A stretch of 33,153 bases of DNA from Candidatus Rokuibacteriota bacterium (GCA_016188625.1 JACPHL010000115.1:1-33153), one strand, 5' to 3'; positions 2,712 to 31,248 are shown, numbered from the stretch's first letter. Translations and numbers: made by a program. The notes: generated by a model from the sequence alone, not told the origin.

Positions 2712-2793
2712 CACACGATCGCTCAGGTCCTGTGTTTCAGAACGAGGTACGGATAGAATTCGGCAACGCGAGGCCAAAGCGGTCCAGCCGGGT

Positions 2794-2887
2794 CTTGGGG
2801 GGAGGCAGGCCCCGAAGCCGGTCGCCGAAGGGCGACCGGACGGCTTCGCCGGGGGCCGTCGGAAGGGGGGCGGAGCCCCCCTCCGAG
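2794..2887 (+). repeat. Structured intergenic repeat, copy 1 (shared head and tail, short central hairpin)
   Basis: The head CTTGGGGGGAGGCAGGCCCCGAAGCC and tail GGCTTCGCC..GGGCCGTCGGAAGGGGGGCGGAGCCCCCCTCCGAG are shared with copies at 9243 and 16654. The central hairpin is GTCGCC-GAAG-GGCGAC. The copy ends 7 nt before the uxs start. Confidence 0.8.
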
Positions 2888-2894
2888 ATGTAGC

Positions 2895-7421: not shown

Positions 7422-9212
7422 ATGAGCCTTGAACTGATCCGAACCTTCTCCATCATCGCCCACATCGACCACGGCAAATCGACCCTGGCCGATCGCCTGC
7501 TCGGGCTCTGCGGGGCCCTGGACCCGCGGAAGGCCGTGGACCAGGTCCTCGACTCCATGGACCTCGAGCGGGAGCGGGGGATCACCATCAAGGCCCACAC
7601 CGTCCGCCTCCTCTACCGGGCCCGCGACGGACGGGAGTACACCCTCAACCTCATCGACACCCCGGGCCACGTGGACTTCTCCTACGAGGTCTCCCGGAGC
7701 CTGGCGGCGTGCGAGGGGGCGATCCTGGTGGTGGACGCCGCGCAGGGGGTCGAGGCCCAAACCCTGGCCAACTACCACCTGGCCCTCGAGGCGGGCCTCG
7801 CCATCATCCCGGTCATCAACAAGATCGACCTCCCCCAGGCGGACGTGGAGGGGACGCGGGAGCAGCTCGCCGATATCCTCGGCCTCGACCCGGAGGAGGC
7901 GCTCCTCATCAGCGCCAAGGAGGGGACCGGGGTCCCCGAGGTCCTGGAGGCGATCGTCCGGCGGATCCCGCCGCCGCCCGGCGCCCCCCGGGGCCCCCTC
8001 AAGGCGCTGGTCTTCGACTCCTTCTACGACCCCTACCAGGGGGTCGTGGTCTACGTCCGCCTCCTGAACGGCCGGGTCCACCCCGGGATGAAGGTCCTCC
8101 TGATGTCCACGGCCAAGGTGTACGAGGTCCAGCAGGTGGGCGTCTTCACCCCGGCGCTCCGCCCGGTGGAGGAGCTGGCGGCCGGCCAGGTCGGCTACCT
8201 CACGGCGGGGATCAAGCGCGTGGCCGACTCCAAGGTCGGCGAGACCATCACCGACGCCCTCGTCCCCACGGCCGAGCCCTTCCCCGGCTACCGGGAGGCC
8301 AAGCCGATGGTCTTCTCCGGGCTCTACCCGGTGGAGGACACGGCCTACGGCGCCCTCCGGGACGCCCTGGAGAAGCTGCGCCTGAACGACTCGGCCTTCA
8401 CCTTCGAGCCCGAGAGCTCCAACGCCCTGGGCTTCGGCTTCCGCTGCGGGTTCCTGGGGATGCTCCACATGGAGATCATCCAGGAGCGCCTGGAGCGGGA
8501 GTTCGGCCTGACCCTGATCGCCACCGCCCCCAGCGTCCGCTACCGGGTGGTGGGCGCCGGGGGGGAGACCGTGGAGATCGACAACCCCTCGAAGCTCCCG
8601 CCCCCGGACAAGGTCGAGGTCATCGAGGAGCCCTACGTCCGCGGGGTCGTCTTCGTCCCCGTGGAGTTCATGGGGGCGGTCTACCGGCTGGCCCAGGAGA
8701 AGCGCGGCGAGCACCGCTCGGCGGACCACCTCGGCAAGCGGGTCCACCTCACCTTCGACTTCCCCCTGGCCGAGATCCTCGTGGACTTCTACGACCGGCT
8801 GAAGTCCCTCTCGCGGGGCTACGCCTCCTTCGACTACGACCTCCTGGAGTTCCGGCCCTCCCAGCTGGTCCGGCTCGACATCCTCCTCAACGGGGAGCCG
8901 GTGGACGCCCTCTCCCTGATCGTCCACCGCGACAAGGCCTACGAGCGGGGGAAGACCCTGGCGGAGCGGCTCAAGGGGGTGATCCCCCGCCAGCTCTTCG
9001 AGGTGGTCATCCAGGCGGCCATCGGGAGCCGGGTGATCGCCCGGGAGACCGTCCGGCCGCTCCGGAAGAACGTCACCGCCAAGTGCTACGGCGGCGACAT
9101 CACGCGGAAGCGCAAGCTCCTGGAGAAGCAGCGGGAGGGGAAGAAGCGGCTCAAGCAGCTGGGGCGCGTGGAGATCCCCCAGGAGGCCTTCCTCTCGGTC
9201 CTCAAGCCCTGA
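7422..9212 (+). CDS. lepA: Elongation factor 4
   Basis: [30 protein letters not shown] and NKID GTPase motifs, plus the conserved LepA C-terminal domain ([17 protein letters not shown]). Confidence 0.96.
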
Positions 9213-9242
9213 GGCCTAGCTATGTGTTCGAGTAAAGTATCC

Positions 9243-9346
9243 GGGGGGAGGCAGGCCCCGAAGCCTTTCGCCAGCGGCGAAGCCGGCCTGGCGAAAGGTG
9301 GGCTTCGCCCAGGGCCGTCGGAAGGGGGGCAGAGCCCCCCTCCGAG
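9243..9346 (+). repeat. Structured intergenic repeat, copy 2 (long form)
   Basis: Near-identical to copy 3 over about 100 nt. Central hairpin TTTCGCCAG...CTGGCGAAA and 3' hairpin GGAAGGGGGG-CAGAG-CCCCCCTCC. It ends 6 nt before the lepB ATG. Confidence 0.85.
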
Positions 9347-9352
9347 TTAGAT

Positions 9353-10015
9353 ATGGATCCCGAGGTCAAGCCCGACCCTAAACCGGACGCCGACCCGGAC
9401 GCGACGCCCGCGCCCCGGGCCGCGGTGCGGCGGAAGTCCGTCCTCCGCGAGTACCTGGAGGCGATCCTCATCGCCGTCCTCCTGGCCCTCCTCATCCGCA
9501 CCTTCGTCGTCCAGGCCTTCAAGATCCCCTCCGGCTCCATGATCCCGAGCCTCCAGGTGGGGGACCACATCCTGGTCAACAAGTTCATCTACCGCTTCCG
9601 GGACCCCGGGCGCGGGGACGTCATCGTCTTCAAGTACCCGGTGGACGAATCCCGCGATTTCATCAAGCGGGTGATCGCGGTGGGTGGGGAGGACCTCTAC
9701 ATCAAAGGGCAGGAGGTCTACATCAACTGCCAGCCCCCCGAGACCGGCTGCCGCCCGCTGGAGGAGCCCTGGGCCTACTACGACGAGCGGCCGGTGGCCT
9801 CGGAGACCTTCGGCCCGGTCCACGTCCCCCCCGATGCCTACTTCGTCATGGGGGACAACCGGAACAACAGCCAGGACAGCCGCTTCTGGGGGTTCGTCCG
9901 GCGCGAGAAGGTGAAGGGGAAGGCCTTCATCATCTACTGGTCGTGGGATGGGGAGACGGGCAGTCCGCTCTGGGAGAAGGTCCGGTGGTCGCGGCTGGGG
10001 CGGCTGATCCCCTGA
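9353..10015 (+). CDS. lepB: Signal peptidase I
   Basis: SGSMIPSLQVGD (Ser nucleophile box), KRVIAVGGE (Lys box) and GDNRNNSQDSRFWG. Confidence 0.93.
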   Translation: MDPEVKPDPKPDADPDATPAPRAAVRRKSVLREYLEAILIAVLLALLIRTFVVQAFKIPSGSMIPSLQVGDHILVNKFIYRFRDPGRGDVIVFKYPVDESRDFIKRVIAVGGEDLYIKGQEVYINCQPPETGCRPLEEPWAYYDERPVASETFGPVHVPPDAYFVMGDNRNNSQDSRFWGFVRREKVKGKAFIIYWSWDGETGSPLWEKVRWSRLGRLIP

Positions 10016-15732: not shown

Positions 15733-16647
15733 ATGGAGCTTCAATCGACGATTCGCAAGCAGGTCGGGTGCCAGGGGATCGGCCTTCACACCGGTGAGCC
15801 GGTCCACCTGACCCTTCAGCCGGCCCCGCCCGACAGCGGCGTCCTCTTCCGCCTCCTCCCCCCCGGGGTGGACATCCTGGTGGGCCCTGATGCGCTTCTG
15901 AACGGCCATTACGCCACGACCCTGGGGTGGGACGGGGTCCAGGTCCAGACCGTCGAGCACCTCCTGGCCGCGGTCGCGGCGCTCGGCATCGACAACCTGC
16001 GCGTGGAGGTCGAAGGGGTCGAGCTCCCGGCGATGGACGGGAGCGCCAAGCCGTACGTGGACCTCCTCTACGCGGCGGGGCGGGAGGGGCAGGCCGCTCC
16101 CCGCCGTCCCCTCTACGTGAAGGAGGAGATCCGCGTCGGGGACGACGCGCGCTGGATCCAGATCTCGCCGGCCACCGAGACCCGGATCAGCTACACCCTG
16201 GACCTGGACCACCCCGTGGTGGGGGTCCAGATCGCTTCGTTCGCCCCCACCGAGCGGGTCTTCGTGGAGGAGCTGGCCTCCGCCCGGACGTACGGGTTCC
16301 TCAAGGACGTCGAGCTGCTCCGCCAGCAGGGGCTGGCCCGGGGCGGGTCGCTGGAGAACGCCGTGGTGGTCGGCCAGGAGCGGGTCCTGAACGGCTCGCT
16401 CCGCTTCCGCGACGAGTTCGTCCGCCACAAGATCCTCGACGTGGTCGGGGACCTGGCCCTCCTGGGGCGGCCGGTGGTCGGGCATGTGGTGGCGCGCAAC
16501 GCCGGCCACGCCCTGAACCACCAGCTGGTCCGTGAGGTCCACCGGCGGGCCGCGGGGTGGGAGCGTGGCGTGGTCGCCGCCCTCCACCACCCGGTCGGCC
16601 GCTCCGAGGGCGAGCCGAGACTCCACCCCGGCCTGGCCGCCGTCTAG
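15733..16647 (+). CDS. lpxC: UDP-3-O-acyl-N-acetylglucosamine deacetylase
   Basis: GGGAGG ribosome-binding site. TIRKQVGCQGIGLHTGEPV, the HKILDVVGDLALLG motif and ARNAGHALNHQL are typical LpxC features. Confidence 0.94.
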   Translation: MELQSTIRKQVGCQGIGLHTGEPVHLTLQPAPPDSGVLFRLLPPGVDILVGPDALLNGHYATTLGWDGVQVQTVEHLLAAVAALGIDNLRVEVEGVELPAMDGSAKPYVDLLYAAGREGQAAPRRPLYVKEEIRVGDDARWIQISPATETRISYTLDLDHPVVGVQIASFAPTERVFVEELASARTYGFLKDVELLRQQGLARGGSLENAVVVGQERVLNGSLRFRDEFVRHKILDVVGDLALLGRPVVGHVVARNAGHALNHQLVREVHRRAAGWERGVVAALHHPVGRSEGEPRLHPGLAAV

Positions 16648-16653
16648 CCGCCT

Positions 16654-16759
16654 CTTGGGGGAGGCAGGCCCCGAAGCCTTTCGCCAGCGGCGAAGCCGGA
16701 CTGGCGAAAGGTGGGCTTCGCCCAGGGCCGTCGGAAGGGGGGCGGAGCCCCCCTCCGAG
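16654..16759 (+). repeat. Structured intergenic repeat, copy 3 (long form)
   Basis: Starts 7 nt after the lpxC stop and is near-identical to copy 2. Differences are one G fewer in the head, GGCCTGG vs GGACTGG, and loop CGGAG vs CAGAG. Confidence 0.85.
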
Positions 16760-16772
16760 TTTCTCTTTCTCC

Positions 16773-16802
16773 TTCCTTCCCTTTCGTCGCCGGCGCTATA
16801 AT
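16773..16802 (+). promoter_or_regulatory. Possible promoter with perfect -10 TATAAT close to the DUF4390 start
   Basis: TATAAT at 16797-16802 lies 9 nt before ATG 16812. The -35 is weak (TTCCTT). It is preceded by a 26-nt all-pyrimidine tract (16760-16785). Confidence 0.35.
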
Positions 16803-16811
16803 GATTGATCC

Positions 16812-25469: not shown

Positions 25470-25586
25470 ATGCCTAAGCGCACGGACTTACGCAAGATCC
25501 TCATCATCGGCTCAGGGCCCATTGTGATCGGGCAGGCGTGCGAGTTCGACTACTCGGGGACCCGGGCGTACACGGCCGGCAAATGA
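25470..25586 (+). pseudogene. carB 5' fragment (38 codons: 31 identical residues, 5 diverged codons, then unrelated GK and a stop)
   Basis: [31 protein letters not shown] is identical in protein to the carB N-terminus at 26155, then reads RAYTAGK*. Its TGA overlaps the ATG of the next ORF (ATGA). Confidence 0.85.
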
Positions 25587-25903
25587 CCCTGGAACAGCAG
25601 ATCGAGTGCATCGTCAGGCAGATCGTTGAGGGGTACCGACCTCTGAAGGTTATCCTCTTCGGCTCGCACGCCTACGGCGAACCCACAGAGGACAGCGACC
25701 TTGATCTTTTGATCGTGAAGGAGACGTCCGAGCGGTTCATCGACCGGTGGGTTGCGGTCCAGGAGTTGATCGCGGATCCCGAACGGCGGATCCCCGTGGA
25801 GTCGATCGTGGTGACTCCTGGCGAGCTGCAGCGGCATCTGACCCGCGGGGATCAGTTTTTCCAGGAGATCGTCGCCCGCGGGAAGCTCCTCTATGCCGCG
25901 TGA
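25583..25903 (+). CDS. Minimal nucleotidyltransferase (MNT / antitoxin-type NTase domain protein)
   Basis: 106 aa. [21 protein letters not shown] matches the GSxxxG...DxD polymerase-beta-like NTase signature. Size and C-terminal helices fit MNT proteins of HEPN/MNT modules. Confidence 0.8.
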
Positions 25904-25943
25904 GGAATCCCGCTATCCCGGGGATTGGCTGAGGAGGAGGTGA
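25893..25943 (+). pseudogene. Possible vestige of a HEPN partner gene (16 codons)
   Basis: ATG 25893 overlaps the NTase stop, as in MNT-HEPN pairs. [16 protein letters not shown] resembles the WL..AE.DL N-terminal helix of HEPN-domain partners and then stops. Confidence 0.25.
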
Positions 25944-25950
25944 TCACCTC

Positions 25951-26154
25951 GTGATCAGAGACGGCCACGACTTCCTGGAATGGCTCCACCGGATCAGGGA
26001 GGAGCACGCGCGCGAGCGTGAAAAGATGACGGACAAGGAGGTGATCGCGCAGATTCAAGCGGAGGCCAAGGGACTGCTGGACGAGGCAGGGTACACGCTC
26101 AAGCCCGCCCCGGATGGTCCGGGCAATCGGATCGTCAAGCGGGGGGAGGCCTGA
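25951..26154 (+). CDS. Hypothetical 67-aa protein
   Basis: GTG 25951 lies 7 nt after a perfect GGAGGTGA ribosome-binding site. MIRDGHDFLEWLHRIREEHAREREKMTDKEVIAQIQAEAKGLLDEAGYTLKP.. Its TGA directly abuts the carB GTG. Confidence 0.5.
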   Translation: MIRDGHDFLEWLHRIREEHAREREKMTDKEVIAQIQAEAKGLLDEAGYTLKPAPDGPGNRIVKRGEA

Positions 26155-29288
<3,134 letters not shown>

Positions 29289-30587: not shown

Positions 30588-30944
30588 CTGAGCCGCGAGC
30601 AAGGGGTCAAGGCCGACGGGATCCCCTTCAACCACGCCAGCGAGCGGGAGTTCGCCGAGCTGCTCAGCTACTACGGGGTGGCCTGGCAGTACGAGCCCCA
30701 GACCTTCCCGCTGGAGTGGGACGAGGCCGGCCGGGTCACCGAGGCCTTCACTCCCGACTTCTACCTCCCCGAGGAGGACCTCTACATCGAGCTGACGACG
30801 AAGCAGCAGCGGCTCATCACCGAGAAGCACCGGAAGATCCGGAAGCTCCAGGCCCTCCACCCGGACGTCCGGATCAAGCTCCTCCGGCGCCAGGACTACC
30901 TGGCCCTGGCCCGGCGGTTCGGCTGGCGGCCCCCGGAGCCCTAG
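30588..30944 (+). CDS. Conserved hypothetical protein with a PD-(D/E)xK-nuclease-like motif; non-canonical start
   Basis: The track gives 30678..30944, but clearly protein-like sequence (GIPFNHASEREFAELLSYYG) continues upstream in frame with no ATG or GTG. CTG 30588 lies 7 nt after GGAGGGG. The PDFYLPEEDLYIELTTK block resembles D...ExK. Confidence 0.5.
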   Translation: MSREQGVKADGIPFNHASEREFAELLSYYGVAWQYEPQTFPLEWDEAGRVTEAFTPDFYLPEEDLYIELTTKQQRLITEKHRKIRKLQALHPDVRIKLLRRQDYLALARRFGWRPPEP

Positions 30945-30946
30945 GG

Positions 30947-31096
30947 GGGATTATTCGTGAACGGCTTCCCGCGAGGCGGACGGGTCCTGTCACGCCGGGC
31001 AGCCCCACTCGGCTCGCCACCCCCGCCCGGTGTTGGGGCGCCCCGCCCGGCGCGCCACCCGTCCGCCGTCCGCTGGCGGCGTTCACGAATAATCCC
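30947..31096. repeat. 150-nt long imperfect hairpin / MITE-like element with 16-bp perfect terminal inverted repeats
   Basis: GGGATTATTCGTGAAC (30947-30962) is the exact reverse complement of 31081-31096. Inner stems are GGCGGACGGGT/ACCCGTCCGCC (30975-85 / 31057-67) and CGCCGGGC/GCCCGGCG (30993-31000 / 31045-52). Confidence 0.75.
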
Positions 31097-31198
31097 GGCT
31101 GGGATTCTGGCCGGATGACACCGAGGTGGCTCCGTGCTCTTGACCCTCGGCTCGCGGATGGACTGTTCCGTTTCGAGCGCCGGCTTCGCCGGCGCAAC

Positions 31199-31241
31199 CT
31201 TGGGGGGAGGTTCGGAAGGGGGGCGTAAGCCCCCCTCCGAG
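31199..31241 (+). repeat. Structured intergenic repeat, copy 4 (short form: head plus 3' hairpin only)
   Basis: CTTGGGGGGAGG-TTCGGAAGGGGGG-CGTAAG-CCCCCCTCCGAG lacks the central hairpin and ends 7 nt before the hpt ATG. Confidence 0.65.
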
Positions 31242-31248
31242 GAGAAAG

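Follow-up and report, generated by a model that had tools for sequence, protein, structure and literature searches.

A widespread, probably mobile hairpin repeat of Rokubacteria that adjoins the starts and stops of genes

Repeat copies in the analysed window

The DNA analysed here, referred to below as the window, is a stretch of 33,153 nucleotides from Candidatus Rokuibacteriota bacterium (GCA_016188625.1, JACPHL010000115.1), which is contig C240 of a 2.6-Mb, 344-contig MAG with 71.7% GC (labelled G000). The window contains four repeat copies in which the 3' ends of CTCCGAG are found at 2887, 9346, 16759 and 31241, and all four lie on the + strand, as do their flanking genes. The distances from repeat end to start codon given in the initial annotation were confirmed, being 7 nt to uxs GTG 2895, 6 nt to lepB ATG 9353, 52 nt to ATG 16812 and 7 nt to hpt ATG 31249; an ATG at 2898 follows just past GTG 2895. 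The four copies had been treated as one repeat, which they are not, since copies 1 to 3 belong to one family (family B, ~107 nt) and the hpt copy to another (family A, ~143 nt), and the only parts common to the two families are the CTTGGGGGGAGG motif and the terminal hairpin. Copies 2 (lepB) and 3 are 98% identical.

The lepB copy lies within the 140 nt between the lepA stop codon (TGA 9210-9212) and the lepB start (ATG 9353), where the order of elements is GGCC-TAG, the left motif ATGTGTTCGAGTAAAG, GGGGGGAGG, a long nested hairpin, GTC, the terminal hairpin, G, TTAGAT and ATG. The features of this spacer and of the other three copies are as follows:

9216..9219, + strand: CTAG, left flank of the lepB copy, 4 nt past the lepA stop; family A copies are likewise preceded by CTAG or decayed CCAG/CTGG
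9222..9237, + strand: left-end motif ATGTGTTCGAGTAAAG of family B, related to family A CCGTCCGAGTAACGC
9243..9251, + strand: G-run or SD-like motif GGGGGGAGG, common to families A and B; CTTGGGGGGAGG has 115 copies with at most 1 mismatch
9252..9316, + strand: central long hairpin of family B, CAGGCCCCGAAGCC...GGCTTCGCCCAGGGCC, enclosing an inner hairpin TTTCGCCAG...CTGGCGAAA, as given by the fold and by 98% identity to copy 3
9318..9345, + strand: terminal 12-bp hairpin module TCGGAAGGGGGGC-AGA-GCCCCCCTCCGA, common to all element families
9347..9352, + strand: AT-rich terminus or linker TTAGAT, which contains TAG 9348-9350 and adjoins lepB ATG 9353
2785..2894, + strand: copy 1, a family B variant with hairpin 2859-2886 and linker ATGTAGC, before uxs GTG 2895 / ATG 2898
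16648..16759, + strand: copy 3, family B, with hairpin 16731-16758; its left end is 4 nt past the TAG stop 16645-16647, and 52 nt separate it from ATG 16812
31112..31248, + strand: copy 4, family A, left boundary approximate, with hairpin 31212-31240 (4-nt loop) and linker GAGAAAG, before hpt ATG 31249

The whole ugd-uxs spacer (2712-2894) is probably repeat-derived. On the 3' side of copy 3, within 16760-16811, a pyrimidine tract of 26 nt is followed by TATAAT, which lies 9 nt upstream of ATG 16812. The gene starting there probably has a promoter of its own, which fits with copy 3 being the one copy far from a start. Upstream of hpt, a different hairpin element of ~150 nt with AT-rich inverted termini (GGGGGATTATTCGTGAACG / CGTTCACGAATAATCCC) occupies 30947-31110, between the TAG of the upstream gene (30942-30944) and the family A copy; two elements thus fill a junction which in a relative (G005) is an ATGA overlap of hpt with its upstream gene.

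Terminal hairpin and element families

Counting with an nhmmer profile of the terminal hairpin gave ~180 good hairpin copies in the 2.6-Mb genome, or ~70 per Mb. The hairpin, UCGGA-A-GGGGGGC/NNN/GCCCCCC-UCCGA, has a predicted dG of -23.6 kcal/mol, and in 101 distinct variants 96.6% of cells are paired. Compensatory changes were observed in 4 of 12 pairs, with two-sided changes from C-G to U-A at the loop-closing pair and from C-G to G-C near the base, and none of 500 shuffles scored as well. Several bodies carry this same end: family A (~100 copies), with a consensus of CTAG followed by GAGCCCGTCCGAGTAACGC...CTTGGGGGGAGGTTCGGAAGGGGGGCGGAGCCCCCCTCCGAG-GCAC-CTAG, family B (~18 copies, among them window copies 1 to 3), families C and D, and bare palindromic hairpins. 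The end common to all of them consists of the 12-bp G6C hairpin, a G, and ~4-8 AT-rich nt often ending in (C)TAG.

The loop with its closing pairs is mostly GC-GNA-GC, as at 9329-9335 in the window, and GCGAAGC is dominant in other Rokubacteria. The oligonucleotide d(GCGAAGC) is an unusually stable DNA mini-hairpin, and the match of the loop core to it hints that the element may pass through a single-strand DNA step, or that the hairpin may be relevant as single-stranded DNA. The Rfam scan of the window gave 0 matches at the gathering score and no literature on repeats in Rokubacteria was found. The repeat family is apparently undescribed.

Spacing and orientation relative to genes

Genes were called by a codon-usage model trained on this genome, with at least one error, at carB, where the model scored the first 2 kb poorly and wrongly chose a minus-strand ORF. 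In this genome 95 copies were placed between tandem genes, 29 between convergent and 5 between divergent genes, and only 7 inside genes, convergent regions being enriched for copies and divergent regions depleted. The initial annotation had described the repeats as always co-oriented with transcription. This holds in the window only, where nearly all genes are on the + strand; between co-directional genes of the whole genome 50 copies are sense and 45 antisense (p = 0.68), and at 113 loci in other Rokubacteria 39 are sense, 37 antisense, 23 convergent and 3 divergent. Four copies out of four in the same orientation have a P of ~0.06 under random orientation, and the co-orientation in the window is a small-sample accident.

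The spacing, on the other hand, is far from random. For copies followed by a gene on the same strand, the distance from the hairpin end to the start was at most 12 nt in 27 of 60 cases in this genome (mostly 5-11 nt) and in 24 of 42 cases in other genomes. For copies followed by a gene on the opposite strand, the stop of that gene was found 0-5 nt from CTCCGAG in 84 of 99 cases in this genome, with a mode of 4 nt, and at the same distance from the hairpin end in 56 of 64 cases in other genomes. This opposite-strand arrangement, in which a stop codon precedes the hairpin end by 0-5 nt, is the commonest context. The genome-wide compilation of repeat-end to start distances that had been proposed as a check thus gave very strong support for the spacing rule and none for the orientation rule, and the view that the placement is not what random insertion predicts was borne out, with 27 of 60 sense ends within 12 nt of a start.

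Artefacts of start calling were considered as a source of the spacing and ruled out by coding potential and by the share of ATG. The called starts behind the hairpin are ATG in 18 of 27 cases in this genome and 20 of 24 in the others, and in codons 2-21 behind the called starts GC3 is 95% and the coding log-odds 0.46, in comparison to -0.35 for the in-frame intergenic control. The starts of lepB, uxs and hpt also agree with the genes of relatives. The apparent reach of antisense copies 9-17 nt into upstream genes is probably BLAST over-extension, given the diverse sequence past CTAG.

To relate orientation to the tightness of the junction, the repeat bounds were drawn without regard to family: any stretch matched by 3 or more BLAST hits at other places in the genome was counted as repeat. 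At most 12 nt separated the repeat from the downstream start in 32 of 50 sense copies, in comparison to 6 of 45 antisense copies (Fisher p = 3.6e-7). Classified by the ends that are tight, the copies were distributed as follows:

both ends tight: sense 24, antisense 8
only stop side tight: sense 10, antisense 35
only start side tight: sense 10, antisense 0
neither end tight: sense 6, antisense 2

In 77 of 95 copies the hairpin end adjoins a gene boundary, and in 10 only the other end does so; among the one-sided cases the counts are 45 for the hairpin end and 10 for the other end (4.5 times). Where antisense copies do occur in short or tight spacers, the gene's own SD comes next. The median intergenic lengths follow the same trend, with 171 nt for sense and 261 nt for antisense copies in this genome and 138 and 201 nt in the others. 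The co-orientation claim is thus retained for tight operon junctions, where the copies are nearly all sense, and given up for the repeat as a whole. Since the total orientation is balanced despite the bias in tight junctions, selection would have acted after insertion, and we infer from these sequence counts that orientation is filtered by selection. A palindromic target by itself explains neither the 4.5-fold excess of the hairpin end at gene boundaries nor the preference of loose junctions for antisense copies (35:10).

When the proteins behind sense-tight copies were compared across genomes, only one weak pair was found among 50 proteins, so general positional conservation is unsupported; the recurrences before uxs and lepB may be hot spots.

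Insertion and probable target sites

Comparison with relatives indicated that the repeat is an insertion. Empty lepA-lepB sites, in which the stop is followed by 2-11 nt and ATG, were found in 7 relatives, and empty sites between ugd (or another upstream gene) and uxs, with a stop, 3-12 nt and ATG, in ~20 relatives. Since the lepA-lepB, ugd-uxs and X-hpt junctions measure 0-12 nt or overlap in relatives, the repeat is an insertion which now fills the whole spacer, and its absence from these junctions in most relatives shows that it is dispensable there. Inserts are also present in other genomes: G005 has an independent, related insert at lepA-lepB which ends 8 nt before ATG, and G014 and G022 have sense inserts ending 7-9 nt before the uxs ATG. 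Read from these comparisons, the 6-7 nt gap would be the remnant or replacement of a short stop-start junction.

The 8 nt past CTCCGAG are AT-rich, K-N-W-Y and then C/T-T-A-G, and 76% of copies have a TA at +1..+8 relative to the hairpin end, in comparison to 9.8% of random intergenic 8-mers. The left flank of family A is CTAG, or CCAG/CTGG where a stop codon is not needed, so that CTAG or its decayed forms are found at both ends of this family. Among 46 family A copies CTAG was present at the left end in 12, at the right end in 16 and at both in 5, counts which fit CTAG as part of the element and CTAG as a target duplication equally well. The stops that abut the hairpin are TAG in 37, TAA in 35 and TGA in 17 cases, in comparison to 28%, 10% and 62% in the genome (odds ratio 7.5, p = 4e-17). 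In this 72% GC genome only 1% of dinucleotides are TA, and 254 of the 700 CTAG sites lie at the ends of genes. The inverted termini comprise just CTAGGAGC...GCACCTAG, ~8 bp (CTAGGWGC); further inward the two ends are alike as direct repeats (TCCGAG-NNAC), not as inverted ones.

Ribosome binding, start accessibility and termination

The short spacers before uxs and lepB (ATGTAGC and TTAGAT) are free of an SD, as first annotated, and the hpt junction does form one, CCGAGGAGAAAGATG, with GGAG 4 nt before ATG, where linker and repeat end together give GAGGAG. The genome uses SDs, with a GGAGG peak at -12, and a 4-mer SD is present in -20..-4 at 49% of predicted starts in comparison to 24% for the background. 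In 17 of 21 relatives with an empty ugd-uxs junction uxs is likewise SD-free, so that the SD-less state of uxs is ancestral and not caused by the repeat, and in relatives the SD of lepB is weak and variable. The description of the repeat end as lying where the SD should be is thus weak, as uxs is without an SD in most of these relatives and only about half of the predicted genes have a 4-mer SD. The insertion also shifted the upstream stop to more than 100 nt from the start, which breaks tight termination-reinitiation coupling.

By predicted folding, the probability that the start codon is unpaired is 0.55 behind the hairpin in comparison to 0.42 for controls (p = 0.007), and the -8..-1 region is 40% AT in comparison to 26%. 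A fold that gates ribosome access to the downstream gene, as initially suggested, is not favoured, since the hairpin is self-contained and the starts are predicted to be more open than average; what survives of this idea is compatibility with initiation, for which the modelled structures argue, and not gating. As to termination, only copy 3 has the look of an intrinsic terminator, through its own T-rich flank. With this sole exception a canonical terminator was rejected, as the consensus tail is G followed by ~4 AT-rich nt without a U-tract.

Proposed explanation and alternatives

We consider it reasonably likely that positions 9243-9355 are one copy of a Rokubacteria-wide mosaic repeat, hairpin-forming, non-coding, probably mobile and non-autonomous, and similar to REP and MITE elements, which lands at TA/CTAG near stop codons and whose orientation is then filtered by selection. 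The element would insert into TA/CTAG-type sites, and in a 72% GC genome such sites would be met mainly at TAG/TAA stops and at stop-start junctions, so that targeting of these places could give the 6-7 nt spacing by itself. Selection would then keep almost only sense copies in tight operon junctions, because in the sense orientation the self-contained hairpin and the unpaired A/U-rich linker would leave the start exposed, and initiation could proceed independently of an SD or from a weak GAG(G). Antisense copies would last where the downstream gene has its own SD or a promoter at some distance, and next to a stop with free space past it the hairpin-first orientation would be favoured. Most likely the element is tolerated rather than required at these starts, and at lepB it would leave the start usable.

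It is also conceivable, and we think unlikely, that the hairpin end acts as a portable boundary module which spares the downstream cistron. The locked 12-bp helix would then lie where an SD helix otherwise forms, 7-12 nt upstream of the start, with the unpaired A/U-rich linker allowing SD-independent initiation, and on the other strand the helix would cap the mRNA after the stop. Such a module would be a structural answer to the problem which MIRUs solve with a coupled ORF.

Closer to the initial annotation is a dedicated element of intercistronic expression, co-oriented with its genes, whose hairpin has a stabilising or partly terminating effect on the upstream cistron and whose fold gates the downstream start. 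The non-random spacing of 5-11 nt to the start, the strong preference for sense in tight junctions, the recurrence of sense inserts upstream of uxs (three genera) and of lepB (two genera), and the compensatory changes that keep the hairpin are all in line with it. We regard it as distinctly unlikely, however, given that the overall orientation is random, that most copies adjoin stop codons on the other strand and that the same junctions are empty in most relatives, and given further that the start is predicted to be more open rather than occluded, that a U-tract is found at copy 3 only and that the genes behind sense-tight copies differ across genomes.

A relay similar to that of MIRUs, in which a short ORF that begins near the upstream stop runs through the sense element to a stop beside the downstream start and permits SD-free termination-reinitiation, seems improbable. 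About 15 of 22 sense-tight copies do have an open frame ending at -9..+1 nt from the start, which in 13 of the 22 begins within ~30 nt of the upstream stop and in four cases has ATGA-type overlaps at both ends. The lepB copy itself has a 42-codon ORF from ATG 9222 to TAG 9348-9350, and MIRUs have been reported at start codons with a coupled ORF (PMC12548453). Open frames are nevertheless expected in 72% GC DNA, the element lengths vary by 1-2 nt and show no 3-nt periodicity, among 18 family B copies only 5 have their left-end ATG in frame with the terminal stop, as expected by chance, and there is no overall orientation bias. A conserved through-ORF is not supported, the frames being open yet the frame not conserved.

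In phage T4 genes 38 and 25, hairpins bring a split RBS near the start. A split RBS of this kind, in which the SD-like GGGGGGAGG on the 5' side of the hairpin or hairpins would be brought by folding to ~8-13 nt from the start, has a fitting geometry in family A, where GGGGGGAGG lies ~1-4 nt before the hairpin base and the start 6-12 nt past it, and in family B the motif precedes two adjacent hairpins. It is very doubtful all the same, as families C and D and the bare hairpins are also sense-tight without the motif by the hairpin, and in the minimum-free-energy fold of the hpt copy the motif is paired in a small stem.

Candidate transposases

The least probable alternative, and one we hardly expect to hold, is that these are REP elements whose spread depends on a RAYT (Y1 HUH transposase), the arrangement known from Enterobacteria and Pseudomonas. 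In its favour, the repeats are extragenic GC-rich palindromes of high copy number, with an enrichment 3' of genes and in convergent regions. Against it, Y1_Tnp (PF01797) has no match in this MAG, and the Y1_Tnp genes which 14 of 41 genomes in the order possess are free of hairpins to a distance of 1.5 kb (12 loci). Y1_Tnp is also commonest in a genus with almost no hairpins and missing from the hairpin-rich G003 and G009, and the GTAG tetranucleotide is absent from the hairpin foot, which is CTCGGA with the nearest (C)TAG ~4 nt off and degenerate.

DDE_3 likewise had no match in this MAG. The IS91-type Y2_Tnp was found in 22 of 41 genomes of the order and in 0 of 14 control genomes, with no hairpin within 1.5 kb. 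RAYT, IS630-type DDE_3 and IS91-type Y2 were therefore rejected as partners for having no association with the hairpin, and an origin from IS200/IS605 or IS91 elements finds no support in an HUH transposase (Y1 or Y2) sharing the hairpin end. No parent IS with the same ends was seen; the absence of DDE_3 and of such an IS is weak evidence, the MAG being 84% complete.

Relation to known repeat systems

The repeat does not clearly fit the definition of any of the named families (REP, MITE or MIRU) and is best filed as a variant among small interspersed repeats of the type that these families represent. Similar to the REP/BIME elements of Enterobacteria and Pseudomonas, the repeats are short GC-rich palindromes in hundreds of copies, extragenic and forming mosaics, which occur in either orientation, are enriched 3' of genes and between convergent genes and have a hairpin near stops. 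They differ in having no RAYT association and no GTAG, in that the unit is one fixed end of bodies of 100-160 nt, and in that they adjoin starts as well as stops to the nucleotide and are spread through a whole candidate phylum.

IS630/Tc1-type elements target TA/CTAG and IS5-type elements target YTAR. With MITEs that have such targets (TA/CTAG for the IS630/Tc1 type, e.g. Correia, or YTAR for the IS5 type) the repeats share a size of ~100-160 bp, a structured and non-coding body, flanks of TA/CTAG and presence/absence polymorphism. The differences are that the inverted termini of the Rokubacteria repeats are only ~8 bp long, that their two ends differ at gene boundaries and that no matching transposase was found.

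As summarised in PMC12548453 and PMC3184786, the MIRUs of Mycobacterium (Supply et al. 1997) are small GC-rich repeats in operon junctions, located at or by start codons. By these summaries, MIRUs share with the present repeats a high-GC genome, a location in operon junctions, empty sites in relatives and an insertion which is thought to spare downstream expression, while being co-oriented with the genes and carrying an ORF that overlaps the flanking genes; the Rokubacteria repeats are random in overall orientation and keep neither a conserved through-ORF nor a conserved frame. The Neisseria REP2 and Borrelia upstream repeats, which carry a promoter, an RBS and an ATG (PMC3184786), are alike in lying directly upstream of genes and forming stem-loops, and unlike in that the Rokubacteria repeats have no evident promoter or RBS and the ATG is that of the host gene.

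Rokubacteria are uncultured, and their expression signals are known from sequence alone. A repeat that marks starts and stops to within a few bases at ~70 copies per Mb is a practical aid to start annotation, and the same repeat contributes to the fragmentation of MAGs. The filtering of orientation in tight junctions could serve as a natural experiment on how much upstream context a start needs in a lineage that is GC-rich and partly independent of the SD. Should the hairpin end indeed support initiation without an SD, it would be a compact and transferable translation signal; if not, the repeat is still an undescribed mobile element with transposition machinery yet to be found.

Distribution among Rokubacteria and further observations

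Of 41 genomes in the order, 29 contain the exact hairpin 23-mer; copy numbers per genome range from 0 to 124, this genome being the richest, and the exact hairpin was also found in more than 113 contigs of Candidatus Rokubacteria/Methylomirabilota MAGs. Many hairpin copies in G000 lie within ~50 nt of contig ends (e.g. C58:3, C281:1, C177:4, C82:37 and C153:51); the repeat family probably breaks assembly, and the copy numbers are thus lower bounds.

Two junctions of G000, at C237:~8880 and C282:~2894, are near-identical, each with a short frame through a family-A-like repeat and an ATGA overlap with both the upstream stop and the downstream start; they may represent paralogous loci, or variants from different strains that ended up in one bin. 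In G003, the region upstream of uxs (L185:1051-1500) contains a tandem array of a ~270-nt unit, which places three copies of the ugd tail ahead of uxs. Each unit is made up of a family-A-like repeat and the last ~90 nt of ugd (IYEPERM...YPG*), with GC-ATG after every repeat end, in the reading frame of the ugd tail; the tandem may be real or an assembly artefact. Finally, positions 25471-25577 of the window are a diverged copy of the 5' end of carB, 88% identical to 26156-26262 (region 25471-28250).
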